From IMG/VR virus record IMGVR_UViG_3300020200_000004: a DNA stretch of 64,000 nt; one strand, given 5' to 3'. Below the pieces are notes generated by a model, which saw nothing but the letters and a program-made list of their open reading frames with translations, searched no databases and was not told where the DNA came from. The translations under genes were made by a program, and so were the position numbers. The stretch is from a virus (lineage: Duplodnaviria; Heunggongvirae; Uroviricota; Caudoviricetes). Below, in pieces: positions 4,258-58,094 of this stretch (its first letter is position 1; each line of letters begins with the position of its first letter).

Positions 4258-5220
4258 ATGGGGATTCCTAGCATTTCACTTTCCAAGGAAGAATTGGAAC
4301 AAAATTGCCGCATTATGCGTAAGGGTAACACAATCTTACGCAAGTTCAGCGAAATAACTGGACTCAGCTTAAAAGCATTCCGCATCCGTCTATTCAAGGT
4401 TGGTCCAGATGTAAAGGAGAACTGGCCTGAATTGACCTTGGCACAACTGGAAGAATTGCAATTTGGTTGGAAGGCAATTCAGCATATCAAGGCAATTGAA
4501 TGGGATATGATTCAGTGTTTTTCTCGCCTTGTGCATCAGCTTGCTTCTCGTTTTTGCAAAGGTTATCAGCTACGCACCAGTGGCTCAATTATTTCGATTG
4601 CCGATTGCGTTCAAGAAGCTACTTTAGCTTTAATTGATGCAATTTTCACTTATGATAATGAAAAAATTAAGTTTATTACCTATGCATTTACGTGTATCAG
4701 GAATAAGCTGACTCAGATGGTTGCCAAGAATGCTCCTCTTAGCCCATTGACAGGGGAAGTGCCTGATTTGATGCGTCGTTATGAGATTCAGAAGGCAAGT
4801 TATAATCGTCATGTGACTGATGATGAGGTTTTCGCTGATCTTAAGTTGGACGAGCGGGAAATTAAGATTTTGACCAAGGCTAAAGCTAAGGTTTGGACTT
4901 CTAGGGAATGGCGTGACACCGATGAATCTCGTAGTTTTTCAAATGACTATACTGAGGCTCGTCATGGCATTGAACATGAGAAGCCTTTCCCGGCTGACTT
5001 TGAAATTGAAGAAGTAATTGGCCGGGCTGGTTTGGATGAGATTGAGAAGAAGATCATTGCTACAGCTATACGTCCTTATGCTGGGTGGCAGACTGATCTT
5101 GCTGCAAACAATATCAATCCAAACACTGGCAAGCCTTATACCCGTCAGCGTATGGGTCAGATTGTGCATGCTGCCTATGATAAGGTTCGCAAGGCATTGG
5201 CGTTAACTGAGAGTAGGTAA
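4258..5220 (+). CDS. Sigma-70-family RNA polymerase sigma factor (phage-encoded)
   Basis: 320 aa; region-2-like ADCVQEATLALIDAIFTYDNEKIKFITYAFTCIRNKL (FxTYA..IR); C-terminal region-4-like TRQRMGQIVHAAYDKVRKAL. Confidence 0.55.
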   Translation: MGIPSISLSKEELEQNCRIMRKGNTILRKFSEITGLSLKAFRIRLFKVGPDVKENWPELTLAQLEELQFGWKAIQHIKAIEWDMIQCFSRLVHQLASRFCKGYQLRTSGSIISIADCVQEATLALIDAIFTYDNEKIKFITYAFTCIRNKLTQMVAKNAPLSPLTGEVPDLMRRYEIQKASYNRHVTDDEVFADLKLDEREIKILTKAKAKVWTSREWRDTDESRSFSNDYTEARHGIEHEKPFPADFEIEEVIGRAGLDEIEKKIIATAIRPYAGWQTDLAANNINPNTGKPYTRQRMGQIVHAAYDKVRKALALTESR

Positions 5221-5364: not shown

Positions 5365-6093
5365 GTGACAAACAATCTAATTAAATATCTGAATAAGCGT
5401 ATTATCCCTTGGCGAAACGATTTTGGGTTGCCAAGGGATATTGCCCATAAAACCCATAGCCCCGTTAATATTTTAATATTAAATGCGGCGACTGAGGTTA
5501 ATAGGTATAATTCACCTTTTTGGGCAACCAAGGAACAATGGAATTCAGTAGGTTGTAAAGTTAGATATTGGGAACAGCCAACTTTAAGTTATTACAACAA
5601 AGACCAAGTAGATGGAAGCTTTGCTTGTGCTGCTGACCCTGTTATGTCTTTTAATGAAGTTGATAAGTTAATTGTTGATACCAAGGTTAATATAAAGTTT
5701 TCGCATAAGCTTATTGCTGAATATCATTATCCACCCAATGATTACATTTTGTTTCCTTATAAAATTCATTTTGATATGGGAGAAGGTAAGGAAGCTGGGT
5801 ATTACAATGCAATTTTCCATGAATTAGCCCATTTTACAGAACCTAAATTGGGTTGGGAATCTGAAAAGTATGGTGTGCCGGTTACTGAGTTACGTGCTGA
5901 AATAGCTGCTGACTTCATCACTTCTTATCTGCGTCTCCCACGATTGGCTTTTAATTTAAGAAGTAACCATCACAAGTGGATGGCAGATTGGGTCATGGCT
6001 TTGTCCTATGCTCCAAATTTGCTTGTTGCGGCTGCTGCTTCGGCTTACAATGCATTTAGATTGATTGTGAAGAAATATGCTAACGTATATTGA
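5365..6093 (+). CDS. ArdC-like protein (N-terminal ssDNA-binding-like region plus HExxH metallopeptidase-like motif)
   Basis: 242 aa, GTG start; NRYNSPFWATKEQWNSVGCKVR resembles the ArdC-N (DUF1738) motif; HELAH motif downstream. Confidence 0.4.
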   Translation: MTNNLIKYLNKRIIPWRNDFGLPRDIAHKTHSPVNILILNAATEVNRYNSPFWATKEQWNSVGCKVRYWEQPTLSYYNKDQVDGSFACAADPVMSFNEVDKLIVDTKVNIKFSHKLIAEYHYPPNDYILFPYKIHFDMGEGKEAGYYNAIFHELAHFTEPKLGWESEKYGVPVTELRAEIAADFITSYLRLPRLAFNLRSNHHKWMADWVMALSYAPNLLVAAAASAYNAFRLIVKKYANVY

Positions 6094-6502
6094 AGGCGAT
6101 CTGTTTAATTCAAAATGCGAATATGTTATATGCACCGTGAACTGTATTGGTGTAATGGGAAAAGGAATTGCTTTAGAATTTAAGAAGCGATACCCAGAAA
6201 TGTACTTGGCTTATAGAGAGGCTTGTGATAAAGGGGAAGTTAAAATAGGAAAGATGTGGGTTTGGAATAATATTATAAATTTTCCCACTAAAGATGATTG
6301 GCGTAACCCTTCCAAGCTAGAGTATATTAAAGCTGGGTTGTTGGACTTGAAAGTGGTTGTAAGAGAAAGAGGAATAAAAAGTCTTGGGATGCCAAAATTA
6401 GGTTGCTCCAATGGAAAATTAACGTGGGAAGATGTTAAAAAGCTAATTGAGATATTTCATTCAGTGGTTCCAGAATTGGATTTGCAAGTTTATTTAAAAT
6501 GA
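6077..6502 (+). CDS. Macro-domain protein, OARD1/TARG1-like (terminal ADP-ribose glycohydrolase family)
   Basis: EGDLF...CTVNCIGVMGKGIALEFKKRYP and LGMPKLGCSNGKLTWEDV parallel human OARD1 EGDLF...[21 protein letters not shown] and LSMPRIGCGLDRLQWENV. Confidence 0.7.
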   Translation: MLTYIEGDLFNSKCEYVICTVNCIGVMGKGIALEFKKRYPEMYLAYREACDKGEVKIGKMWVWNNIINFPTKDDWRNPSKLEYIKAGLLDLKVVVRERGIKSLGMPKLGCSNGKLTWEDVKKLIEIFHSVVPELDLQVYLK

Positions 6503-9586: not shown

Positions 9587-9641
9587 CCCCAATCATATGT
9601 GAAAAAGGCAAAAATCTAACTGTTTTCACATATGATTGGGG
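9587..9641 (+). promoter_or_regulatory. Perfect 19-bp inverted repeat hairpin (17-nt loop) between genes; the 3' arm overlaps the SD of the RNA-ligase gene
   Basis: ccccaatcatatgtgaaaa ...17 nt... ttttcacatatgattgggg; SD ggggagaagg begins inside the 3' arm; ATG at 9651. Confidence 0.55.
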
Positions 9642-24869: not shown

Positions 24870-26042
24870 ATGCTTGTAGCAGAACGACATTATATACAAG
24901 AAACACTTGAAATTGTCCGACTATGTACATTAAGCAAAGAACTTTACAATAAATGCAATTTCTTGATGAGGCAAGCATGGTTTATAAATGAAAAATTACC
25001 TAATATAAATTTGCTTGTTCGAGAGACAAAGCCATTAGACTGTTACAAAAACCTTCACAACACCAAAACAGCAGCACAAACAATACGTAAATGTCTTGTA
25101 GATTGGGCAAACTTCCTCAAAACCCTGAAAGCATACAAGAAAGACCCAACAAAATTCAAAACTAGACCTAAACCGCCTTATTATAAAAATAAACTCACAC
25201 AAATTATATTCTTTAATGAAACTATCAAGAAAAGACCATTGAAACAAGATGTAATTACCCCAACGAACAATCTATTTTCAATTAAAAGTGACATTAAAGA
25301 ATTTAAGCAAGTAATGATTACTCCTAAAACATTTGGTTTTATAGTAGACATTCAATATGAAAAAGAAGTCAAGAAAGTAAAAGTAAGCAAGAATAGGTTT
25401 GCCTGTATAGATGTTGGTGTAAATAATTTAGCTACGATAACTTCAAACCAACTGGAGCATCCCATATTGGTTAATGGTCGCATACTAAAAAGCATCAATA
25501 GATTCTATAATAAAAAACCTAATAAGAATAATAGTAGGAAACGTTATTTCCGTATTGAGAATTATTTCCATCATGCTTCTAAATTTATAATTGATTTATG
25601 TATTAAACATAAAATTGGCAAAATCATTATCGGTAAGAATGATGGTTGGAAGCAATTTTCTAAAATACGAAAAGTACAAAACCAAAATTTTCAATATATT
25701 CCTTTTTATAAATTTTTAGATAAGATTAAGTATAAAGCAACATTAGCGGGCATTGAAGTTATATTTACTGAAGAATCATATACAAGTAAAGCAAGTTTCC
25801 TTGACCATGATTCAATACCAACTTATAAAAAAGGCAATAAACCTCCTACTTTTTCTGGTAAAAGAGATAAAGGAATGTATAGAACATTTAGACCTATTCA
25901 TGCTGACGTGAATGGAAGTTTAAACATAGGATGTAAAGTATTCGGGGATAAAGTCTACAAGGCTTTCCCTGATAGGAGCATTGCCGCAATGCCAGTACGA
26001 ATTAATCCATTGAAGATTTTTGCATATAACAGCAAAAATTAG
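24870..26042 (+). CDS. tnpB: TnpB-like protein (OrfB_IS605 family), apparently nuclease-dead (TldR-like)
   Basis: 390 aa. RuvC-I FACIDVGVNNLA and RuvC-III HADVNGSLNIGCK are present. The RuvC-II position reads KIIIGKNDGW (Gly where the catalytic Glu is expected). The zinc-finger cysteines are absent (ESYTSKASFLDHDS...). Confidence 0.65.
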   Translation: MLVAERHYIQETLEIVRLCTLSKELYNKCNFLMRQAWFINEKLPNINLLVRETKPLDCYKNLHNTKTAAQTIRKCLVDWANFLKTLKAYKKDPTKFKTRPKPPYYKNKLTQIIFFNETIKKRPLKQDVITPTNNLFSIKSDIKEFKQVMITPKTFGFIVDIQYEKEVKKVKVSKNRFACIDVGVNNLATITSNQLEHPILVNGRILKSINRFYNKKPNKNNSRKRYFRIENYFHHASKFIIDLCIKHKIGKIIIGKNDGWKQFSKIRKVQNQNFQYIPFYKFLDKIKYKATLAGIEVIFTEESYTSKASFLDHDSIPTYKKGNKPPTFSGKRDKGMYRTFRPIHADVNGSLNIGCKVFGDKVYKAFPDRSIAAMPVRINPLKIFAYNSKN

Positions 26043-35231: not shown

Positions 35232-35924
35232 ATGTTGAATGAAAACAAGATGGACCTTAATTTATTTTGCAATAATCCAATATCAGCGATAAGGGCTATT
35301 TTAGCATGGCATTGGGGCAATCCTTTAATTGGCGAAGGTAATCTTTCTAAAGACTTAGTAAGGGGATTACGTCTTACTAATAAATTTTGCAATGGTGATA
35401 CCGATAATTTTACTCAATGGGATTTTTGGATTTTTCTTGATGAAAATGGAAAGAAAAGATGTAGCAAATGTCAAATAACAAAAGATACAGAAGATTTTAA
35501 AACTTCCAATAATTCCAAAGATGGTTACAAATCTGCTTGTATGAGATGTGAAAAAAATAGTGATTTGCTGAGCCAATATGGTATAACTTTGAAGCAATAT
35601 GAGGCAATAGAAAAGAATCAAAATCATTGTTGTGCTATATGTGAATCAAAAGACTCAAAAATTCCTAGAAAACATAGAAAAACTAAAATAGATGTATTTT
35701 GTGTAGACCATGACCACGATACAGGCGAAATAAGAGGTTTACTTTGTTTTAATTGTAATACTGGATTAGGGCAGTTTAAAGATTCTGCCGATGTTCTGGG
35801 AAACGCTTTGTGTTATTTGAGGAAGTTTAATTGTACCAAGAACGAGAAAAGTTCAACGAACAATCAAATAGGAAATACAAATGATTTTGGTACAGAACCC
35901 ATTGAATTTGGAAAAGTCTGCTGA
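35232..35924 (+). CDS. Recombination endonuclease VII-family protein (C-terminal EndoVII domain)
   Basis: HCCAICES...VDHDHDTGEIRGLLCFNCNTGLG matches the EndoVII CxxC...DHDH..G..RGLLC..CN..LG signature. Confidence 0.7.
   Translation: MLNENKMDLNLFCNNPISAIRAILAWHWGNPLIGEGNLSKDLVRGLRLTNKFCNGDTDNFTQWDFWIFLDENGKKRCSKCQITKDTEDFKTSNNSKDGYKSACMRCEKNSDLLSQYGITLKQYEAIEKNQNHCCAICESKDSKIPRKHRKTKIDVFCVDHDHDTGEIRGLLCFNCNTGLGQFKDSADVLGNALCYLRKFNCTKNEKSSTNNQIGNTNDFGTEPIEFGKVC
35827..35840 (+). promoter_or_regulatory. Conserved motif TTAATTGTACCAAG, copy 6 (inside the 3' end of the EndoVII ORF)
   Basis: Exact 14-mer 40 nt upstream of ATG 35881. Confidence 0.45.
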
Positions 35925-37920
35925 TGTTAAGCCATCTACTTTTAGGATTAAAGCGTCTCAAAAAGCTTTTGCGATCTTGTCGTCTGGTTTATATTCAGAT
36001 AAGGTGTCATCGACCATCCGTGAATTGTCTACCAATGCCGCTGATGCCCATATCGCTGCTGGCAACAAGGAATCTTTTACCGTTCATCTGCCCAATACCC
36101 TTGAACCATTTTTCTCCGTAAAGGACAATGGCACTGGACTTTCCGAACATCACCTTAATACCCTTTATACAACCTATTTTGAATCAGATAAAACTCATTC
36201 AAATGACTTTACTGGTTGCTTGGGATTGGGCAGTAAGAGTCCATTTAGCTATACCGATCAATTCACCGTTGAAAGCCGATTCAATGGCAACAAGTATACC
36301 TATAGTTGCTTCATTGATCAGGATGGATTGCCTTCTATCGCCAAGATGGGTGAAGAAGTTACTGAAGAATCCAACGGTCTAGAAGTTAAGTTTGCTGTTA
36401 AAAGTTCTGATTTCTGGGAATTTCAGAATAAGGCATCAAATATTCTATCTTGGTTTAATCCTCAGCCTAATGTTGTTGGCGTTGCTGGGTTTGAACTTAC
36501 GCAACGAGAATACATTAGGAAAACTGATAAGTATGCTCTCCGCAAGGAAAAGCATTATGGTGATGCGAGCCGATTGATCATGGGTAATGTTGCTTATAAG
36601 CTGTCTACCTACAGTCTTGGCAACAAGGTTAGTTTGGATGAACTTGACCGGCAGATTCTAGATTGGGGCTGTGAAATCTTTGTCCCAATTGGCACTGTTG
36701 AAGTAACTGCAAACCGTGAAGATATTACTTATACTGAAAATAGTGCTAAGGTCATTAAGGAATGTCTTGCTGAAGCTGTCAAGGATGTTAGGGGAGAAAT
36801 TGATAACATGATAGCTTCCGCTCCTACAATTTGGGAAGCTAGGCGTGTTCTCCATGATTCTCACCATTCCATCATTGGCAAGATTAAGAATTTAACTTCT
36901 GCTACTTGGAATGGTCAGGAAATTCATAGTTATGTAAGTTCTGCCAAGTGGAATGAAAAGAACCCTGACAAGGAAATTAATATTCAGTTTTTGCGACGTA
37001 AGAAGGAACGTTTCGCAAAGAGCAATGGGCATAGCCACATTCACGCTGATAACAAGCCCATTTATGTGAATGACTTGGGGCATGGTGGTTACACAAGGGT
37101 TTTGCATGATTTAAATAAGAAACGCACAGATGAAGCTTACTTGCTGCAAAACAATAACGTAAGTTTCTTGGAAGAAGCTGGACTAAAAGAAATTGTAATT
37201 CGTGCTAGTTCTTTACCTAAGCCTGAAAGCAAGCGTTCTTATGTTCCACGTCGCAAGGGAGTAAGGGCACAGCTTAATCGTTGGGTTGAATCTCATTCCT
37301 ATAAAAAAGAAGCTTGTTCATATTGGCAACCAGCTGACGTTGATTTGGAACAAGGTGGCATTTATGTAGAAATGTCTTACTATAAATATACGTTGTTTGG
37401 TAATGAAGGTAATAGCCCAGACGGTTTGGAGTCTACCATCAGCGCTTTGTCGGCTTTCCATGAATCTGAGGATGGAAAATTGGAAGTTTTTGGAATTCGT
37501 TCGGCTGATAAGAAGATTCTGGAAAAGATGGATAACTGGATTAGCCTTGACGATTATATCAAGGAAGTTGTTGAAGCTAATGAATATCTTGATGCCACTA
37601 TCAAGATGAATAATGAATGGACTCATTATCGTGACAATCTTGCCGAAGCTTTCTTTAATGATGATTTGAGTGAAAAAACCTTATTTGGCCGTTATGTGGA
37701 ATATTGCAAAAAGGCTTACAAGGCTCATTCCAGTGAAAGTCGGGCATATATTAGACTGTGCGGTTTGGTTAATAAGAACATTGGAACTGGAACTAAGTTA
37801 AAGGAAATGCGGGATGAATTGCAGGCCAAGTATCCTTTGATTAGTTTTCTTAGTTCTTACGATACTCCTTACAACAGTAAAACTTTTAAGGCAGCACTTT
37901 TGAAATATGTGAAGGAGTAA
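35881..37920 (+). CDS. GHKL-family ATPase (Hsp90-like N-terminal ATP-binding domain)
   Basis: 679 aa; N-box IRELSTNAADAH, G1 box VKDNGTGLS, G2-like GCLGLGSKSPFSY (compare Hsp90 ELISNASDA / DTGIGMT / GQFGVGFYSAF). Confidence 0.5.
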   Translation: MILVQNPLNLEKSADVKPSTFRIKASQKAFAILSSGLYSDKVSSTIRELSTNAADAHIAAGNKESFTVHLPNTLEPFFSVKDNGTGLSEHHLNTLYTTYFESDKTHSNDFTGCLGLGSKSPFSYTDQFTVESRFNGNKYTYSCFIDQDGLPSIAKMGEEVTEESNGLEVKFAVKSSDFWEFQNKASNILSWFNPQPNVVGVAGFELTQREYIRKTDKYALRKEKHYGDASRLIMGNVAYKLSTYSLGNKVSLDELDRQILDWGCEIFVPIGTVEVTANREDITYTENSAKVIKECLAEAVKDVRGEIDNMIASAPTIWEARRVLHDSHHSIIGKIKNLTSATWNGQEIHSYVSSAKWNEKNPDKEINIQFLRRKKERFAKSNGHSHIHADNKPIYVNDLGHGGYTRVLHDLNKKRTDEAYLLQNNNVSFLEEAGLKEIVIRASSLPKPESKRSYVPRRKGVRAQLNRWVESHSYKKEACSYWQPADVDLEQGGIYVEMSYYKYTLFGNEGNSPDGLESTISALSAFHESEDGKLEVFGIRSADKKILEKMDNWISLDDYIKEVVEANEYLDATIKMNNEWTHYRDNLAEAFFNDDLSEKTLFGRYVEYCKKAYKAHSSESRAYIRLCGLVNKNIGTGTKLKEMRDELQAKYPLISFLSSYDTPYNSKTFKAALLKYVKE

Positions 37921-38991: not shown

Positions 38992-39300
38992 ATGAAATTC
39001 TATACTGCCGAAAAGATTATGGAATTGTTTTGTTCTCCCACAAGAGAATTTGTTATTACTACAATCTCCGACAATGGGGCAATTAGAGTTTGGAATGGTA
39101 TTGATTTTGAGTTTCCTAATGATGATCCTTGGGGATACAAGAATTTAAAAGCTGCTCAAAGGGTTGCCAATAAGATTGAAAAAGACAAAGGTATAAAGAC
39201 TAAAGTTTGTTTTTGGGTTCATTCTGAAGATGATTATAAGCCAATTGAAAAATACGCTAAAATGACCGGTAAACGCTGGGAAGGGTGTCCGACGCAATAG
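38992..39300 (+). CDS. Small hypothetical protein translationally coupled to the cas12-like gene (candidate accessory)
   Basis: 102 aa; its stop TAG at 39298-39300 overlaps taGcATG with the start of the 1020-aa effector gene. Confidence 0.4.
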   Translation: MKFYTAEKIMELFCSPTREFVITTISDNGAIRVWNGIDFEFPNDDPWGYKNLKAAQRVANKIEKDKGIKTKVCFWVHSEDDYKPIEKYAKMTGKRWEGCPTQ

Positions 39301-39301
39301 C

Positions 39302-42300
39302 ATGTCGCAATTTAAGACAGTTGAGAATTTTAAGGATATTTTAATGTTAAAAGAAAAAACTACTTTGCGATCCTATCAGCTGCTTCTATTAGATAATCAT
39401 GATTTAGTAGAAAAGACGATAGATGTTTATACAAAAGGAGCTTCTGCTTGGTTGGACTTTTGGCTTACTGTTTTGGGCGGTATAGAATTTGAGATGATTC
39501 CATTATCTCCTCTTAGCAGTTATTGTATTACTAAAAAATTAAAGAGGAAATCCCAAGAAGATAAAGAAATATTTATTCCTATTAGCGAAGAAGCTTTATT
39601 GTTTGGCTGTTGGTTTTCTTTAGAAACGAATAGCAATTCGCCATTCATTATTTCTGTTCAAGATGTTTGGAACAAGTTCAAATCTTATCTGCCGAATAAT
39701 GTGAAAATAAGCTACAATTGGGAAAGAACTATCAAAGCACAAATTAATTCCTTTGTGTCTGAGAATACTTGTTGGGTAGATAGAAGAAAAGCATTTCAAG
39801 ACCTATCATTTAAAATTAATGTTGCTGATCTTGTTTGTAAAAAAGATTTTTGGCTTAATAAAGATGTGGATAGCAAATTGTATATGAGAAGTGCCTTGGG
39901 GCAATGGTGGAATGATGGAACAAAATCAGATTGGGTTAATCTTAAAATTAAATGTGAACAGTCTATAAAATTTATCGAACAAGAATCAGATATCAGAAAT
40001 GCAAAAACAAAAATTCTACAATCTCTTGGATTGCCAGATATAGCAGAAGCTAAAGAAATTGGCAAAGCTTATGGCAAAAAAGGAAAGCCTTCCAGAGTGT
40101 TTATTAAATTGGAAAAATTAACAGAAGATACTACCAAAGACCAATTGGTTAAGGAATTTCAAGAAGAAATTGTAAACGCAGAAGAACATGTTGCTTTTAA
40201 GCGTTGTCCCTGGCATGCGAAAATTAGAGAAAACATTGAAAAAGCAATAGGTGTAAGTTATTTTAATGAAAAAGGTAATAGTAGTCAAAATAATTTTGGA
40301 GAAATGGGCAATCTTGCTCTTGAAAAAATTAAAAGTTGGAAATCTAATTTTTTTAATGTCTTAGGAGAAAGATATCATAACTGTAAATCTGATTTCCATG
40401 ATTCAGAGGTAAAAGAATGGTTTGAAGAATACAAAAAAACAAACAAACAACTTAGAAATAGCAGCCTTTCAGGACTTGAAAAAGTATTTGATTTACTAGA
40501 TAACAAGTCTTTTGAAGATGCTATTAAAGAAGCCCAAAAATCCTACAACATTCTTGGAAGAAGATTTGGAGACGCTAACTTTTTCAACTTTTTAGGCAAT
40601 AAAATTCAGTCCAGAAAGGACAAAGATTGGTTGAAATTAATACGAGAATATGATAATTGGGATAATGTAAATTACAAATTTATAAATCATAAAAGTCCAA
40701 GACTTAAGCATTTTGGGGATGATCACTTAGCCACTCCTAGATTTGGGGAGTCAAGACCAACAGGCAATATCAAAAGCACAACTGGAAATAGTCACTCAAT
40801 TACATTGAATGTTTTCGATGGCAAATCATTCAAACTGACTAAAATTAATTCTGCTTGCAAAAGATTGTCTAATGAAATTAAAGATAATCAATCAATTAGA
40901 CAGACTAAGTTATCTGGAAAAATCTTTGAAAACTATCGAATTCTTCCTAAGAGTTTAGTTAAAAAGGGTGGACTTAAACTTTGTAAACAAAATGATAAAT
41001 GGTATGCCCATCTAACAGTCAATTTGCCAGTATTTGAAAAAGCTTCATGGCAAAAATTGATGAAAACCGGCACCATAATAATGAGTATAGACCCTGGTAT
41101 TAGAAGTTCTATATCATATACTATATTTGAAATATTTGAATGTGATCGAGATACAGATTATTTTATTGAAAATGGCATTACTCATGTGAAAATACATTCA
41201 TGGGAAGATCATAGTGGTACTAAGTTTAAAGTGCCTCATAATAATTTGTGGGTTAAATTGTTGGAATGGGGACATATTCGTGATCTACAACCTATTGGCG
41301 AAAATGGTTATCGTCAGTGCAGATTAGATGGTGGAACAAACACCAATTTAGACTCAGAAGAAATAGAATTTTGGAAATATCTTTTAATAACTGGTGTTGA
41401 GCAAAAAGACATGCCTGATCCTTTGCCAAAAAGGTCTGAATATTCTAGAATTATTGCAAATTTAATTAACAAGTGGTATACAAACAAATCAAAAGAAATT
41501 ACAGATAAGGTTAAACAACTAAATATTAATGATCCTGTAGAGTTTTCAAAAACTTTACAACATGTAAGAAAAGAAAGCGATTTATCATCAGAATTATTGA
41601 TAAAGGCGTCCCAAATATTATTTGTAAATAATTCAGATAAAATTGGGAGAGGCGGGTTATCCTATGCTAGAATTAAGATGCTCCAAACACTTTCTTCTGC
41701 TTGTAATAAATTCTTAAAAGTTAAAGAAAATAATGCAGAAATTATTGAATTTCAGAATTTTCTTAGAAAGAAAATTAATGCCATAAGAACGGAACGAGTA
41801 AGAATTACTGTAAACAAAGTTTTGCATGAAGCTGTCAATAACAAAGTAAATCTAATTCTATATGAAAATACCCAACTAAAATCTTCTTCCAGTTCCCCCA
41901 GAGGTCTTAATAGAAGTATAACATCCTGGTGCCCGTCAAAAGTAATCGAAGAATTGAAAAAACAAATAGATTTGTTGCCAATTTCTATAATGGGAGTAAA
42001 CTCTGCTTATACGTCTCATAACTGTTTTGTAACTTGCAAGAAAAAATGTCGTTATGATAAAGTTCATTTAGATGATCTTAATATTGAGCCTTGGAAAGAA
42101 AGAATAACCGATATTTTTACAAAAAAACAATTAAGCTTAACTGATTGTTTGTTGAAAAAAGGTTGGGAAAATTTCCTGAAAGAAAATGACTTGATGAGCT
42201 ACAAACAAATACCTGAATTTGTTAAAAACAAAAAAGCTTTTTGTTTAGTTCCCTCCAGGACAGGAAAATTGTTTGTTACAGAAATTGGAGAATTGAATGC

Positions 42301-42364
42301 TGATATCGCCGCTGCTGCTACAATAGGAATGAAAGGTCTTGCAATAATCCTATCCAAAGCTTAA
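39302..42364 (+). CDS. cas12: Cas12-family (type V) CRISPR effector-like protein, RuvC-only single effector; subtype not assignable by eye
   Basis: 1020 aa. C-terminal RuvC split in TnpB/Cas12 order: RuvC-I IIMSIDPGIRSS (D597), RuvC-II NLILYENTQLKS (E855), Cys/His cluster HNCFVTCKKKC (906-916), RuvC-III GELNADIAAAATIGMKGL (D1001). About 590-aa N-terminal helical region. The gene lies immediately upstream of a co-oriented CRISPR array. Confidence 0.75.
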   Translation: MSQFKTVENFKDILMLKEKTTLRSYQLLLLDNHDLVEKTIDVYTKGASAWLDFWLTVLGGIEFEMIPLSPLSSYCITKKLKRKSQEDKEIFIPISEEALLFGCWFSLETNSNSPFIISVQDVWNKFKSYLPNNVKISYNWERTIKAQINSFVSENTCWVDRRKAFQDLSFKINVADLVCKKDFWLNKDVDSKLYMRSALGQWWNDGTKSDWVNLKIKCEQSIKFIEQESDIRNAKTKILQSLGLPDIAEAKEIGKAYGKKGKPSRVFIKLEKLTEDTTKDQLVKEFQEEIVNAEEHVAFKRCPWHAKIRENIEKAIGVSYFNEKGNSSQNNFGEMGNLALEKIKSWKSNFFNVLGERYHNCKSDFHDSEVKEWFEEYKKTNKQLRNSSLSGLEKVFDLLDNKSFEDAIKEAQKSYNILGRRFGDANFFNFLGNKIQSRKDKDWLKLIREYDNWDNVNYKFINHKSPRLKHFGDDHLATPRFGESRPTGNIKSTTGNSHSITLNVFDGKSFKLTKINSACKRLSNEIKDNQSIRQTKLSGKIFENYRILPKSLVKKGGLKLCKQNDKWYAHLTVNLPVFEKASWQKLMKTGTIIMSIDPGIRSSISYTIFEIFECDRDTDYFIENGITHVKIHSWEDHSGTKFKVPHNNLWVKLLEWGHIRDLQPIGENGYRQCRLDGGTNTNLDSEEIEFWKYLLITGVEQKDMPDPLPKRSEYSRIIANLINKWYTNKSKEITDKVKQLNINDPVEFSKTLQHVRKESDLSSELLIKASQILFVNNSDKIGRGGLSYARIKMLQTLSSACNKFLKVKENNAEIIEFQNFLRKKINAIRTERVRITVNKVLHEAVNNKVNLILYENTQLKSSSSSPRGLNRSITSWCPSKVIEELKKQIDLLPISIMGVNSAYTSHNCFVTCKKKCRYDKVHLDDLNIEPWKERITDIFTKKQLSLTDCLLKKGWENFLKENDLMSYKQIPEFVKNKKAFCLVPSRTGKLFVTEIGELNADIAAAATIGMKGLAIILSKA

Positions 42365-42451
42365 AATGGCTCTGTTCGTTGATCTTTGACATCTTATTTT
42401 TAAGTTTATTTTAAACAGAAAGCAAACTGTTATCAGTTTTTCTTTCTGTTC

Positions 42452-42489
42452 AGTCTCTCGCCCTTATTTAAAAATAAGGGCGAGAGACT
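42452..42489 (+). other. Perfect 15-bp-stem hairpin between the cas12-like gene and the CRISPR array (terminator-like but without a U tract)
   Basis: agtctctcgccctta-tttaaaaa-taagggcgagagact. Confidence 0.45.
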
Positions 42490-42713
42490 ATGTGGTGAAA
42501 AACGTTGGAAAAGAAAATTTTTCTTAAGTCCTGATGAATTAAGCTTTTGCGATAAAGTTATCCTGTGCTGCCTATCGCTCGTTTTAAGTCTTTATTTGAA
42601 AAAGGTTTATGGCATCAAACCAATAAAATTCGGATATGCAGTTGTTCTAAAGTAATTGCCTCTCGCATACTTGTTTGTAAGTTGTTTTATTAAAAGGCTT
42701 TATGCAAATGAGC
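42490..42713 (+). promoter_or_regulatory. AT-rich CRISPR leader (putative)
   Basis: About 220 nt AT-rich sequence directly upstream of the first, non-degenerate repeat; the degenerate repeat is at the far end of the array. Confidence 0.4.
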
Positions 42714-44534
42714 GTTGCAATAGATTAAAACAATGTGCTGTTATTGGCACTTCGGCGTCATCGTCGGCATGGCCGCCCTGGTCCTGGTTGCAATAGATTA
42801 AAACAATGTGCTGTTATTGGCACACCAATGGCCAGTTTCAGAAAAGCACTTTTTCAATGTTGCAATAGATTAAAACAATGTGCTGTTATTGGCACAAATA
42901 AAACCAGCCAGTAACCGCTATATCCGCAAAAGTTGCAATAGATTAAAACAATGTGCTGTTATTGGCACTATTTGATTGTACATTGCATTACAATCGCCGT
43001 TTTTGTTGCAATAGATTAAAACAATGTGCTGTTATTGGCACCCAAAGGCCAGTCTCCGCCTTTGGCGCTCAAGAGCGTTGCAATAGATTAAAACAATGTG
43101 CTGTTATTGGCACCGATACAATGAAAGTAATCACGTGCACGATGGCAAGGTTGCAATAGATTAAAACAATGTGCTGTTATTGGCACGTCAAATATGGAGT
43201 AGGATGAAGGGCGAATTTTGGAGTTGCAATAGATTAAAACAATGTGCTGTTATTGGCACTGGAGGCTAAGGACTAACAAGAAGAAACTAGGAATGGTTGC
43301 AATAGATTAAAACAATGTGCTGTTATTGGCACGGAGTCCAGATACCATAGTTAATTCGTTGCAATAGATTAAAACAATGTGCTGTTATTGGCACACTAAT
43401 CAGCCAATCTTCTTAGGTGTTGATCTTTCGTTGCAATAGATTAAAACAATGTGCTGTTATTGGCACCGAACCGCCCTTGCCGCCGCCGTACACCTTAATG
43501 GTGTTGCAATAGATTAAAACAATGTGCTGTTATTGGCACTATCCGCAAAAAAAGAATGTGTCAATGCAAGGGTATTGTTGCAATAGATTAAAACAATGTG
43601 CTGTTATTGGCACCCAGCTTGGCAATCTGTCCTTCAATGTGCGTTCTTTGTTGCAATAGATTAAAACAATGTGCTGTTATTGGCACTATAGTGTATGCAC
43701 CGACTAATATATAATAGTAGCGTTGCAATAGATTAAAACAATGTGCTGTTATTGGCACTTTTTGGTCCTCGTCGTGGCCGTACACGTGATCGAGGTTGCA
43801 ATAGATTAAAACAATGTGCTGTTATTGGCACTCCAGTTATTGCTTGTTACTGAGAGAAGGGCTGGGCAGCGTTGCAATAGATTAAAACAATGTGCTGTTA
43901 TTGGCACTATAGCAATCGATTATCTCCGCATCGTCCAGTAGATGTTGCAATAGATTAAAACAATGTGCTGTTATTGGCACCTGCGCAGCGTAGAAGGTTG
44001 TTTCGTCGATGACCTGGTTGCAATAGATTAAAACAATGTGCTGTTATTGGCACAAACGTGACAAAGAGGTTGCAATAGATTAAAACAATGTGCTGTTATT
44101 GGCACATGAATTCGCCAGTGGCGACATGTCGGTCCGTGTCTGGTTGCAATAGATTAAAACAATGTGCTGTTATTGGCACTTGATGCTCTGCCCCAGACTT
44201 TCGTGGAAATCCGTGTTGCAATAGATTAAAACAATGTGCTGTTATTGGCACGGCATTTGCTTAGCCACCTCCGCACTCTTACACTTCTGTTGCAATAGAT
44301 TAAAACAATGTGCTGTTATTGGCACAATGTTCCAGACTTGCTACTACCTAATATGTTTCCGTTGCAATAGATTAAAACAATGTGCTGTTATTGGCACGTG
44401 CGAAGGTTGCCGGACTGCTTATGTTGCAATAGATTAAAACAATGTGCTGTTATTGGCACTGGAACGCACTTTTTCTTTTTTGCGATGCAGCAAGGAAGTT
44501 GCAATAGATTAAAACAATGTGCTGTTATTAGCAC
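42714..44534 (+). CRISPR. CRISPR array: 26 direct repeats of 37 bp (GTTGCAATAGATTAAAACAATGTGCTGTTATTGGCAC), 25 spacers
   Basis: Most spacers 35-37 nt; outliers 39, 38, 25, 25 and 15 nt. Repeat 4 carries a 1-nt deletion. The last repeat (44498-44534) is degenerate (..TTAGCAC). A 3' stem GTGC-N8-GCAC sits in each repeat next to the spacer. Same orientation as the cas12-like gene. Confidence 0.95.
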
Positions 44535-46077: not shown

Positions 46078-46151
46078 GCCCCTGTAGTTTAATTGTGCAA
46101 AACGTGCTACTTTAGATAGCTAAGATGTGGGTTCGAATCCTGCCAGGGGCG
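46078..46151 (+). tRNA. tRNA with predicted anticodon UUA (ochre/UAA-suppressor-type)
   Basis: Cloverleaf by hand: acceptor gcccctg/caggggc, D-stem gttt/aaac, anticodon stem gcta/tagc with loop cTTTAga (U33, anticodon TTA, R37), variable loop aagat, T-arm gtggg-ttcgaat-cctgc. One t-t mismatch at the top of the anticodon stem. Confidence 0.5.
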
Positions 46152-47402: not shown

Positions 47403-48095
47403 ATGAAAGATTATCTAAGAACAATTAACTTGGGGTAGGGAGTCGGTGAATCTGGCAAGCAAGCATGTTGGATGAGCGCTCTTTCTGCTCATTTGGGTGG
47501 GGAATGGACCGATACATTAGATTGCGTTGATCCTATCATTAATAGCCTTTGCATAATTATTAATGATCTTTATTATATGGACAATAAGGGCAGAACCAAT
47601 GACATTATGAAATTTGGTTTGTTTGCTCCATTGGGAACTAAAGGCACTTGGAAAGATACTGAGAAAAGACTATTTAAACTTGCGGATATTGCTATAAGAA
47701 AATGGGCAGCAACCGTGAGTTTTCATACAGGATTTATACAAGATGAAAAATTCCTAAGAAATTTGGATGAAATTGTAGATTTGCCTAGTCTTCGTAAAGC
47801 TAGAAATGATATTGAAATTGCAGCTTGTTATTTAATGAGTGAATTGGACATAATAATTTATCATATAAAAGGCATTTTGATAATCCACGAAACTTGCAAG
47901 AGAGAAATGATAGCTAATTTATATAAGTTTACTGGAATTTTGATAGATCATATGGGTAGAAACGTTCTCGTAAAAGATCATTTATATTCTGCACTAAGAG
48001 AACTAATTGAAATGGGTCCACATGCACCAGAAGAACCTGAATATCCTGCTTGTGGTATTCCAAAGTTTCAAGAACTAGTAGGTATTAAAACATAA
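47403..48095 (+). CDS. Paralog family A member with an in-frame TAG at codon 12 (pseudogene, internal restart at 47472, or stop-codon readthrough)
   Basis: MKDYLRTINLG-TAG-GVGESGKQACWMSALSAHLGGEWTDTLDCVDPIINS... The paralogs have Ile/Phe at the TAG position. C-terminus LIEMGPHAPEEPEYPACGIPKFQELVGI is shared with 48392..48943. Confidence 0.45.
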
Positions 48096-48110
48096 ACTAA
48101 AAGAATTAGT

Positions 48111-48136
48111 GGATTAAAACAATGTGCTGCTGGCAC
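48111..48136 (+). repeat. Orphan degenerate CRISPR repeat (solitary repeat unit) about 3.6 kb downstream of the array
   Basis: ggattaaaacaatgtgctg-ctggcac versus array repeat agattaaaacaatgtgctgttattggcac (18 nt exact, then a 3-4 nt deletion); intergenic between two paralog genes. Confidence 0.55.
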
Positions 48137-48147
48137 ATAGGTATTAA

Positions 48148-48390
48148 ATGTCAAAGTTAACTGTTAGGACTATCTTTAATGGTGCAATGAATGCCAAGTA
48201 TGAAGTTAGTATTCCTCTTAACAAGAAAGAAACAGAGGAACTTAAAAGTGCTTTGGAAGTGGTAAGAAAGTATGAGAAACAAGCTTTAGACGCCACAAAG
48301 GTATCTAGAAAGACAGAAGCAGTTGTAATTGATTATCTGGTTAAATCAAATAGTGTGCTTATCTCTGTTGAAGCTGGAGGTTTTGGTTAA
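48148..48390 (+). CDS. Hypothetical protein (80 aa)
   Basis: ORF starting 12 nt after the orphan repeat. Confidence 0.35.
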   Translation: MSKLTVRTIFNGAMNAKYEVSIPLNKKETEELKSALEVVRKYEKQALDATKVSRKTEAVVIDYLVKSNSVLISVEAGGFG

Positions 48391-52309: not shown

Positions 52310-53233
52310 ATGAATGATAAGGTAAAAGGAGCATTGTGGGGAGGAGTTGTGGGAGATTCAGCTGGGATGTGCGCCGAATTCCTTCCGAGAGGGAGTTTTC
52401 CACCAATTACTGGATATAGAAGCGGTGGGCCATTCAATTTAGAAAAAGGGGCATTCACCGATGACACTTCTATGGCCTTGTGTTTGGCTGATAGCATTGC
52501 CACTGTTGGTTGGGACTTGAAAGATCAATTGAAACGGTATGTAGATTGGTATGAAAATGGAAAATATTCAGTAAATGGTAAATGTTTTGATATTGGCTGT
52601 ACAACTAGGCATGCTTTAAATGAATTTATTCGTACTGGAGAAGTTAATGCAGACCTAGACGAAAATGCTTCTGGCAATGGTTGCATAATGAGACTTTCTG
52701 CCGTTCCAGCCTATTATAGATATCTTTTCCCTCACTATTTGCCTGAATTAATGGTAAAGGCCGAAGAGTCTAGTGCAACAACTCACGGAAGCGAACAATG
52801 CAAATCTAGTTGTCGTTATATGACTGCAATTATTTGTGCTTTTATTCATGGAGATTATACAAAAGATGAAGTTTTATCAACAAATTGGAGAATACTAAAA
52901 GAAATTGAAAACTTAAAGCCTTTGCATCCTTTAGTTAAAACTATTGCAAATGGCAGTTTTAAAACAAAAACTTTAGAAGAAATTGATTCATCAGGATGGG
53001 TGATTGCTACGCTTGAAGCGGCAATTTATTCATTTTATCATTCGAATAGTTTTGAAGAAGCAGTATTTCGTTCTTGCAACATGGGATTAGATGCAGATAC
53101 GGTAGGTTGCGTTACAGGCCAAATTGCTGGTGCGTATTATGGTTTTGATGCTATCCCCAAGGAACTAATTGAAGGTTTGAGTAGAAAAGACATGCTGGAA
53201 GAATATTTCGGCAAGTTATATAAAGGAAACTAA
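52310..53233 (+). CDS. ADP-ribosylglycohydrolase (ARH/DraG family)
   Basis: GALWGGVVGDSAGM and GAFTDDTSMALCLADS N-terminal signatures; C-terminal GLDADTVGCVTGQIAGAYYG. Confidence 0.8.
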   Translation: MNDKVKGALWGGVVGDSAGMCAEFLPRGSFPPITGYRSGGPFNLEKGAFTDDTSMALCLADSIATVGWDLKDQLKRYVDWYENGKYSVNGKCFDIGCTTRHALNEFIRTGEVNADLDENASGNGCIMRLSAVPAYYRYLFPHYLPELMVKAEESSATTHGSEQCKSSCRYMTAIICAFIHGDYTKDEVLSTNWRILKEIENLKPLHPLVKTIANGSFKTKTLEEIDSSGWVIATLEAAIYSFYHSNSFEEAVFRSCNMGLDADTVGCVTGQIAGAYYGFDAIPKELIEGLSRKDMLEEYFGKLYKGN

Positions 53234-56917: not shown

Positions 56918-57199
56918 ATGCGAAAACTCATTCTAAGTCTGATTATTGTTTTAGCAATTCTTAATCCTGCTTATGCCAGGAATCTACGTAATTTCAGGCC
57001 AATTACACCTGGATTGCCGATTCAAACTCAATGGCAAATGCGTCAAGCACAATGGATGCAGCAACAATATATCATGCAGCAACGGTATATTCAAAATTAC
57101 CAGCTATTAATGCAACAGAGAATGCAATGGTGGCTTATTACTAGGCAGCAACAAATCAACATGTGGCTTTATTGGCGAGCTATGATGTATGGATATTAG
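56918..57199 (+). CDS. Secreted Gln/Met/Trp-rich small protein (93 aa)
   Basis: Signal peptide MRKLILSLIIVLAILNPAYA then QWQMRQAQWMQQQYIMQQRYIQNYQLLMQQRMQWW. Confidence 0.4.
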   Translation: MRKLILSLIIVLAILNPAYARNLRNFRPITPGLPIQTQWQMRQAQWMQQQYIMQQRYIQNYQLLMQQRMQWWLITRQQQINMWLYWRAMMYGY

Positions 57200-58023: not shown

Positions 58024-58094
58024 GGCCCCATAGCTTAAGAGGAAAGCAGGGTGCTTATAACGCCAAGACGGTAGTGCGACTCTACCTGGGGCTA
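58024..58094 (+). tRNA. tRNA, predicted anticodon UAU (Ile, AUA-reading); short
   Basis: Acceptor ggcccca/tggggct, D-arm gctt-aagagga-aagc (GG in loop), anticodon loop cTTATAa, T-arm ggtag-tgcgact-ctacc; the anticodon stem has one mismatch and one G-U pair. Confidence 0.45.

Follow-up and report, generated by a model that had tools for sequence, protein, structure and literature searches.

A 64,000-nucleotide (nt) stretch of DNA from a tailed phage (Caudoviricetes; IMG/VR record IMGVR_UViG_3300020200_000004), referred to here as the window, carries a gene for a large Cas12-like protein followed by a long CRISPR array. What kind of system is this, and would its effector work with CRISPR RNA (crRNA) alone or need a trans-activating crRNA (tracrRNA)? 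The preliminary description of this DNA had proposed that the phage encodes a type V effector together with an array in the same orientation, that the leader is on the cas side, and that the available DNA has no adaptation module; this outline stands. It is probable, at roughly 0.75, that the locus is a functional, self-contained, crRNA-only type V interference module of a T4-like phage that works like type V-I (Cas12i). The same description had compared the locus with the CasPhi systems; the phage-borne character and the lack of an adaptation module survive from that comparison, but the family is not CasPhi and the layout is that of V-I.

The effector gene

Three elements make up the locus:

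39344–42364, + strand: cas12, encoding an effector of the Cas12i/Cas12b group with 1006 amino acids (aa)
42365–42713, + strand: leader, the sequence between cas12 and the array
42714–44534, + strand: CRISPR array, with 26 repeats of 37 nt and 25 spacers

The cas12 gene ends in a TAA stop codon. Its reading frame is open from 39302 (39302–42364, + strand), which gives the 1020-aa protein originally reported. This frame does exist, but the ATG at 39344 is more likely to be the true start, as several observations agree: a Shine-Dalgarno sequence (AAGGA) lies 7 nt 5′ of this ATG and none is found before 39302; independent gene calls give 1006 aa as the length of the product; the homologues start opposite residues 15–19; and residues 1–17 are disordered in the AlphaFold model, with a predicted local distance difference test score (pLDDT) below 50. 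Residues are numbered here according to the 1020-aa form, from which 14 must be subtracted to obtain positions in the 1006-aa form (D583/E841/D987 for the catalytic residues discussed below).

A 102-aa open reading frame (ORF) upstream of cas12 had been thought to be translationally coupled to it and perhaps to encode an accessory protein. Nevertheless, 43 nt separate this ORF from the ATG at 39344, and thus coupling is not supported. In addition, family searches gave no match for it, and no homologue was found near the cas12 genes of relatives. Its role as an accessory gene was consequently dropped for want of evidence.

Placement of the protein

As is characteristic of Cas12i, the protein has one RuvC domain, whose D/E/D triad is intact and made up of D597 in SIDPG, E855 in LYEN, and D1001 in NADIAAA. 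These residues, which the preliminary description had already singled out, are nearly invariant in an alignment of 33 homologues. Columns also match those of known enzymes: D597 and E855 align with D599 and E833 of Cas12i2 (residues named in PMC7567891, with a PDB chain carrying E833A confirming the column), and D1001 aligns with the RuvC-III Asp of the Cas12b of Candidatus Hydrogenedentes (ChCas12b). The REC/WED regions of Cas12i2 and ChCas12b have their counterpart in the N-terminal half of the protein (approximately 580 aa), to which they align. A cluster of His and Cys residues that had been pointed out between RuvC-II and RuvC-III is not conserved in the nearest relatives, not even in one that is 40% identical.

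Searches with the single cas12 sequence yielded nothing useful in Pfam, and a word-indexed protein search recovered only the protein itself. Likewise, phmmer against the PDB gave nothing useful, and no relatives turned up when IMG/VR and GTDB were scanned with protein patterns. In PADLOC, the protein matched Cas12i models at 4e-24 and 3e-23 and Cas12b at 9e-17; NCBIfam gave Cas12b at 1.7e-11, which is below the cut-off, and a weak match to guided_TnpB (7e-5) in the RuvC-II region. When 1.84 billion cluster representatives were scanned exhaustively with HMMER, only 39 homologues were recovered. Nearly all of these have 920–1150 aa, and the two nearest are 40% and 30% identical to the window protein; ten were looked up, and all ten are metagenomic singletons with no informative name. 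When 33 homologues were run through PADLOC, 32 matched Cas12i (best 1e-178) and 23 matched Cas12b, and all seven members of the window protein's own clade matched the Cas12i and Cas12b models almost equally.

Profiles extend this picture. A profile of 33 sequences matched Cas12i2 over its full length at 5e-87, ChCas12b at 2.5e-72, and Cas12i1 at 3e-64, and reached classic Cas12b only at 1e-29 to 1e-24. This profile includes sequences that are closer to Cas12i than the window protein is (the nearest relative of Cas12i2 in the homologue set is P0038, the 38th hit), and for this reason the search was redone with the clade of the window protein. With three sequences, the clade profile matched ChCas12b at 8.7e-17 and otherwise gave marginal matches to classic Cas12b. 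With seven, it matched ChCas12b at 9.6e-36, Cas12i2 at 2.5e-31, and BthCas12b at 1.5e-11, and did not reach Cas12i1.

A structure predicted by AlphaFold2 from the 33-sequence alignment (pLDDT 87.2; predicted template modelling score 0.81) was compared with known structures by Foldseek. Cas12i2 and Cas12i1 came out on top, with E of about 6e-31 and template modelling (TM) scores of 0.64–0.67 in both normalisations, followed by ChCas12b (4e-26; TM 0.70/0.52) and then AacCas12b (4e-19; TM 0.49). The structures of CasPhi, Cas12f, and TnpB cover the RuvC core only.

The cas12 product is a genuine Cas12 of the Cas12i/Cas12b group and no TnpB-only architecture; it is deep-branching and has the size and overall architecture of Cas12i. 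Taken by itself, the evidence from the protein cannot tell it apart from the ChCas12b branch, and the evidence from the RNA and the locus discriminates the subtype better. That evidence, set out below, shows a crRNA and locus architecture of type V-I and not of CasPhi. An effector whose subtype had been said to be unplaceable is thus placed near V-I by PADLOC, profiles, Foldseek, and the layout of crRNA and locus together.

The array

The array had been described as co-oriented with cas12, with 26 repeats of 37 bp and starting some 350 bp downstream; this is what is found, with 349 nt between the cas12 stop codon and the first repeat. According to a scripted parse, the repeat is GTTGCAATAGATTAAAACAATGTGCTGTTATTGGCAC, and 25 of the 26 copies are identical, the last one carrying the change G33A. 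All 25 spacers are unique. The length of 22 of them is 35–39 nt, and the three short ones lie at 43333–43357 (25 nt), 44054–44068 (15 nt), and 44398–44422 (25 nt). Their G+C content is 0.47, compared with 0.355 for the window, and they match the rest of the window no better than expected by chance. The last 11 nt of spacer 3 (42896–42931) are the first 11 nt of spacer 12 (43540–43576), an overlap with an estimated chance probability of about 3e-4, which points to two acquisitions from one target with overlapping protospacers. Spacers 11 and 15 have GCCGTACAC in common at the same offset.

The junction between the gene and the array is 100% identical in other assemblies, of which L001 spans the whole array into the downstream genes and L002 covers the cas12 gene and 14 repeats. 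An assembly chimera, which had been named as a possible pitfall and was looked for, is therefore unlikely. The arrays are identical across the other assemblies of the same phage, so no spacer turnover is visible. Beyond these, the array has no match in phage or plasmid collections, and the repeat is absent from IMG/VR, Joint Genome Institute (JGI) metagenome contigs, and GTDB genomes; thus, neither a host array nor a variant array was found. One match to a degenerate repeat pattern (L016) lies in a coding region and was set aside as chance. Comparisons of the spacers with the loci of relatives, and of the relatives' arrays with the window, gave matches at chance level only.

A hairpin at the spacer-proximal end of the repeat

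The 3′ stem of the form GTGC-N8-GCAC that had been recognised in the repeat is real: on folding, the last 16 nt give a stem of 6 bp with a loop of 4 nt, and this hairpin lies immediately next to the spacer. This is the simple stem-loop, serving as the 5′ handle of the crRNA, that is characteristic of type V-I. The handle of Cas12i1 and Cas12i2 crRNAs has 23 nt, of which 6 form a tail and the others a stem-loop whose closing base is at position −1 (PMC8190297, PMC7567891). In ChCas12b and other Cas12b enzymes, the complementary arm comes from the tracrRNA (PMC12204704).

Seven loci of relatives were fetched for comparison, and in four of them (L005, L008, L009, and L012) the repeat units end, next to the spacers, in the same type of hairpin, GUGCY-loop-RGCAC. 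Over 13 units, all 65 stem cells are paired, with one compensatory CG-to-UA change and five wobble changes, and the loops vary between 3 and 8 nt. The Cas12i1 repeat, for comparison, probably ends in GUGCC...GGCAC. L012 has nine hairpin-bearing units, seven of them with the 37-nt repeat GTCGTCACACCGAAACAACTAGTGCCGGACTTGGCAC; L008 has three repeat units; and in L005 an array starts downstream of the cas12 gene. The single unit of L009 (6155–6192; relative P0007, 29% identical) is likewise downstream of cas12 and keeps the hairpin; in its 5′ part it has CAATAGATTAA, which the window repeat contains without any difference. Rather than an array, L009 appears to be a single-guide locus. At positions 9600–9970 of L005 (relative P0006), six degenerate units lie upstream of cas12, and only their 3′ hairpin part of about 20 nt is conserved, compensatory GUGUC/GACAC variants included. 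Repeated GTGCCACCTTCGGCAC units in L010 are inside longer duplicated segments of regulatory appearance and were not counted as CRISPR units.

The leader

Within the leader, the following motifs were found:

42383–42391, + strand: −35-like box TCTTTGACA
about 42452–42489, + strand: perfect 16-bp hairpin
42455 and 42660, with a variant at 42572, + strand: CYC(T/G)CGC, then 6 or 11 nt, then TAAGTY

Neither TCTTTGACA nor CYC(T/G)CGC-N6/11-TAAGTY occurs anywhere else on the + strand of the window. The leader motifs recur downstream of cas12 in L005, L007, L008, L009, L011, and L012, and the loci that have them in common encode proteins that are only 25–40% identical. A strong hairpin holds the first CYC(T/G)CGC copy in its 5′ arm; this is the case in the window and in both L008 and L009. 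A comparison of the leader with Rfam gave no family match and sub-threshold hairpin hits only.

These motifs also bear on orientation. The degenerate repeat is at the distal end of the array, the conserved motifs are on the cas side, and each repeat resembles an intrinsic terminator when the minus strand is read. Together, these features support a leader on the cas side and an array on the + strand, as had been deduced earlier from the degenerate terminal repeat.

Phage context and the absence of adaptation genes

The locus consists of an effector and an array without cas1, cas2, or cas4 in the window, as is the case for type V-I. PADLOC found no match to Cas1, Cas2, or Cas4 among the 79 window ORFs, and these genes are also absent from the seven loci of relatives and from 2 kb of extra upstream DNA. 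The missing adaptation module of the preliminary description is thus borne out for the window and this extension, which together were searched in a genome of at least 112 kb.

The window is the DNA of a freshwater phage that looks T4-like. The phage gene rIIA (35881–37920) is immediately upstream of the locus, and rIIB, endonuclease VII, a clamp-loader-like protein, HNH endonucleases, a NUDIX protein, and a sigma-70-like factor are also encoded, in agreement with the earlier remark that the neighbours are phage-like. The contigs of the relatives are phage-like as well: small ORFs, closely packed and in the same orientation, are found there together with helicases, an RNA ligase, and a protein resembling AcrVA2. 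At the DNA level, no relatives of the 30–50 kb region were found in the phage collection.

Several other features of the window deserve mention. Two genes resembling TnpB/IS605 OrfB, at 480–1706 (− strand) and 24870–26042 (+ strand), match PHROG transposases at about 1e-23 and are called Cas12f-like by PADLOC. TnpB genes are also present in two of the relatives' phage contigs (L005, 4024–5217; L008, 400–1629); small and large RuvC RNA-guided nucleases thus co-occur in these phages. The ORFs at 4258–5220, 5365–6093, 6077–6502, and 52310–53233 encode sigma-70 region-2, ArdC-N/MPTase-PolyVal, and macrodomain proteins and an ADP-ribosylglycohydrolase, and one unassigned ORF is DarG-like (2e-57, PADLOC); these genes look like a counter-defence set. 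An Rfam scan of the window returned two tRNAs only. One, at 46078–46151, has the anticodon TTA and is a predicted ochre (UAA) suppressor (ARAGORN; Rfam 57 bits), and the other, at 58024–58094 (Rfam 53.6 bits), was not reported by ARAGORN. Among the 79 ORFs, 45 end in TAA, 23 in TGA, and 11 in TAG; TAA is the commonest stop codon despite the tRNA with the TTA anticodon.

A solitary repeat-like unit

An anti-repeat, from which a tracrRNA could derive, was sought in the whole window by BLAST and by scans of duplex energy. Nothing of the kind turned up in the leader or at a distance of up to 3.5 kb from the locus. Further away, one element was detected:

48103–48139, strand not assigned: solitary repeat-like unit GGATTAAAACAATGTGCTG-CTGGCAC, with an 18-nt exact match to the repeat

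The exact match covers repeat positions 10–27 (BLAST E 2e-5) and is followed by a 3-nt deletion in the loop, with the 3′ arm and the hairpin kept. This unit is found 3.6 kb past the downstream end of the array, where a gap of 52 nt separates the genes at 47472–48095 and 48148–48390; it is just 5′ of the ribosome-binding site of the second gene, which encodes 80 aa. Judging from its sequence, it could on the + strand be a lone handle of the crRNA type inside a phage mRNA, and on the − strand it could be an anti-repeat that pairs with the repeat. The earlier statement that no anti-repeat could be found consequently holds beside the locus, but must be qualified for the window as a whole, where an element capable of pairing is present. 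A weaker repeat-like stretch at about 57140–57180 is inside an ORF, lacks a hairpin, and was treated as chance.

Proposed mode of action

How might such a locus work? In the favoured explanation, transcription of the array would run rightwards, out of the cas-side leader, and each repeat would form the 3′ hairpin GUGCUG-UUAU-UGGCAC directly abutting the spacer. The 1006-aa Cas12 would bind this hairpin and, by analogy with Cas12i1 and Cas12i2, may cut the pre-crRNA about 22–23 nt upstream of the spacer. The product would be a crRNA with the order 5′-handle-spacer, with no need for a tracrRNA. Guided by this RNA, the effector would find double-stranded DNA flanked by a protospacer adjacent motif (PAM) and nick or cleave it with its single RuvC site, D597/E855/D1001. 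As Cas1, Cas2, and Cas4 are missing from the DNA seen, the supply of spacers must come from outside the locus; new spacers may be provided by host machinery in trans, by recombination, or by genes outside the window. Likely targets would be competing phages, other mobile elements, or the host, the spacers being foreign in composition and not matching the phage itself.

Some observations weigh against this explanation. On the RNA side, the element at 48103–48139 can pair with the repeat in a duplex of −37 kcal/mol, with z = −7.7 relative to all window segments. On the side of the guides, three spacers (15–25 nt) are too short for typical guides, and no protospacer was found, either in phage and plasmid collections or in IMG/VR and JGI contigs, the latter two searched for exact matches to five spacer cores. 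The one indirect hint on the PAM, the 5′ flank of spacer 12 as deduced from its overlap with spacer 3, reads CTA and not the 5′-TTN expected for type V-I, although this is a single weak datum. As for the protein, E is only 1e-3 when it is compared directly with Cas12i2, and in the family profile the processing histidines of Cas12i2, H485/H486, align with consensus residues that are not histidine. The processing residues of Cas12i1 and Cas12i2 differ between those two enzymes.

Alternative explanations

It is conceivable, if doubtful, that the window protein and its relatives P0002–P0006 and P0010 form a phage-restricted lineage between Cas12b and Cas12i that constitutes a subtype of its own. 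Such a lineage would be marked by the leader signature of TCTTTGACA plus CYCTCGC-N6/11-TAAGTY and by solitary units before phage genes, and these units might be used to process or regulate phage transcripts, or one of them might act as a partner RNA in trans.

A second alternative, which we regard as unlikely, is that of a tracrRNA-dependent enzyme resembling Cas12b (cf. ChCas12b), whose anti-repeat would be supplied by the minus strand of 48103–48139. This strand would pair with the repeat over 18+6 bp, its hairpin is followed by a run of T as in a terminator, and a weak promoter-like site (9/12 matches) is found at 48197–48169. Nevertheless, promoter-like sites near 48.1 kb are no commoner than in shuffled sequence (16 found, 21 expected), and a minus-strand RNA of at least 70 nt from this element would have to overlap coding sequence. 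The element is, moreover, six genes away from the array, in a gap between two + strand genes. The GUGCY arm that a tracrRNA would bring is already present in cis in the repeat, and the cis hairpin is kept in four divergent relatives, with loops that vary. The locus also lacks the hallmarks of type V-B: it has no adjacent cas1, cas2, and cas4 and no adjacent tracrRNA anti-repeat, and its repeat is not one without a cis hairpin. Furthermore, the protein has about 1000 aa, as Cas12i does, against the 1496 aa of ChCas12b. The dependence on a tracrRNA is thus rated low because the cis hairpin makes an arm in trans unnecessary and because the element is oddly placed.

It is also improbable that the locus is a relic, or that it has been repurposed for binding or regulation, for instance in gene silencing or in RNA processing, in which case the solitary repeat would label a phage transcript as the substrate. 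Roles other than cleavage have been proposed for phage arrays (PMC7162821), and the failure to find targets, the three short spacers, the position of the solitary unit just before the ribosome-binding site of the gene at 48148–48390, and the existence of a locus with one repeat unit only (L009) would be in keeping with such a fate. By contrast, the catalytic triad is intact and conserved, 25 of the 26 repeats are identical, and the 25 unique spacers, with their foreign G+C content and with two of them overlapping on one target, bear the signature of acquisition for targeting.

Finally, a TnpB/IS605-type transposon nuclease or an assembly chimera, with no CRISPR–Cas unit at all, can be practically dismissed: the weak guided_TnpB match and the two real TnpB-like ORFs elsewhere in the window speak for the former, but the protein has 1006 aa and an N-terminal half with homology to Cas12i2 and ChCas12b in their REC/WED regions, as opposed to the roughly 400 aa of a TnpB, which has neither REC lobe nor array, is guided by an omega RNA, and is flanked by IS ends. 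TnpB and Cas12f structures match the RuvC core of the window protein alone, a 26-repeat array adjoins the gene across a junction that is identical in separate assemblies, and the array, the hairpin, and the leader motifs are found again next to cas12 in relatives with only 25–40% identity. The outcome that the preliminary description had named as refuting was sought and not obtained.

Relation to known systems

Type V-I, with Cas12i1 and Cas12i2, was reportedly described by Yan et al. in 2019. The window system resembles these enzymes (structures 6W5C, 7D2L, and 6LTU) in its size, which for them is around 1000–1100 aa, in its full-length fold, with a TM of about 0.65, and in the order of the RuvC residues, D597/E855/D1001 here and D599/E833/D1019 in Cas12i2. 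The handle is also Cas12i-like, being a plain hairpin whose last base is at −1 and which is preceded by a short 5′ tail. Type V-I has no tracrRNA and a locus made up of effector and array, and the window locus has the same make-up, with no anti-repeat within 3.5 kb. It differs from Cas12i1 and Cas12i2 in that the identity is only about 14–21% and in that the processing histidines of Cas12i2 are not conserved.

Phage-encoded type V-I (Cas12i) systems without Cas1, Cas2, and Cas4 were described in huge phages by Al-Shayeb et al. 2020 (PMC7162821). As in those, a Cas12i-type effector and an array are present without the three adaptation proteins, and a role in conflicts between phages or between phage and host has been proposed. 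Unlike those, the present genome looks T4-like, with a longest assembly of about 112 kb, and is not shown to be that of a huge phage; in addition, it has 26 repeats, compared with a reported median of six for phage arrays (PMC7162821). As phage V-I systems without Cas1/2/4 are already published, the present locus is a deep-branching addition to them and no new kind of system.

ChCas12b (9KLN; PMC12204704) has the N-terminal WED/REC motif in common with the window protein, but it has 1496 aa and needs a 75-nt tracrRNA that gives in trans the arm that the window repeat has in cis. CasPhi (Cas12j) is likewise a phage-encoded, crRNA-only type V system without an adaptation module. Nevertheless, it is not the same family, and the window effector is outside the 700–800 aa of Cas12j effectors.

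Implications

With this locus, a family of enzymes used for genome editing gains a Cas12 that branches deeply, is compact (about 1000 aa), probably needs no tracrRNA, and has a clearly defined RNA handle. The family is rare, with 39 cluster representatives among 1.84 billion proteins, and all the recovered loci look phage-derived, which supports the view of Cas12i-type systems as largely a phage weapon. Since its clade lies between the tracrRNA-dependent Cas12b and the crRNA-only Cas12i, it offers a useful case for how the arm provided in trans came to be joined to the repeat. In addition, an array of 25 spacers, some of them overlapping, without adaptation genes in the vicinity, brings into sharper focus the question of how arrays in phages come by their spacers.

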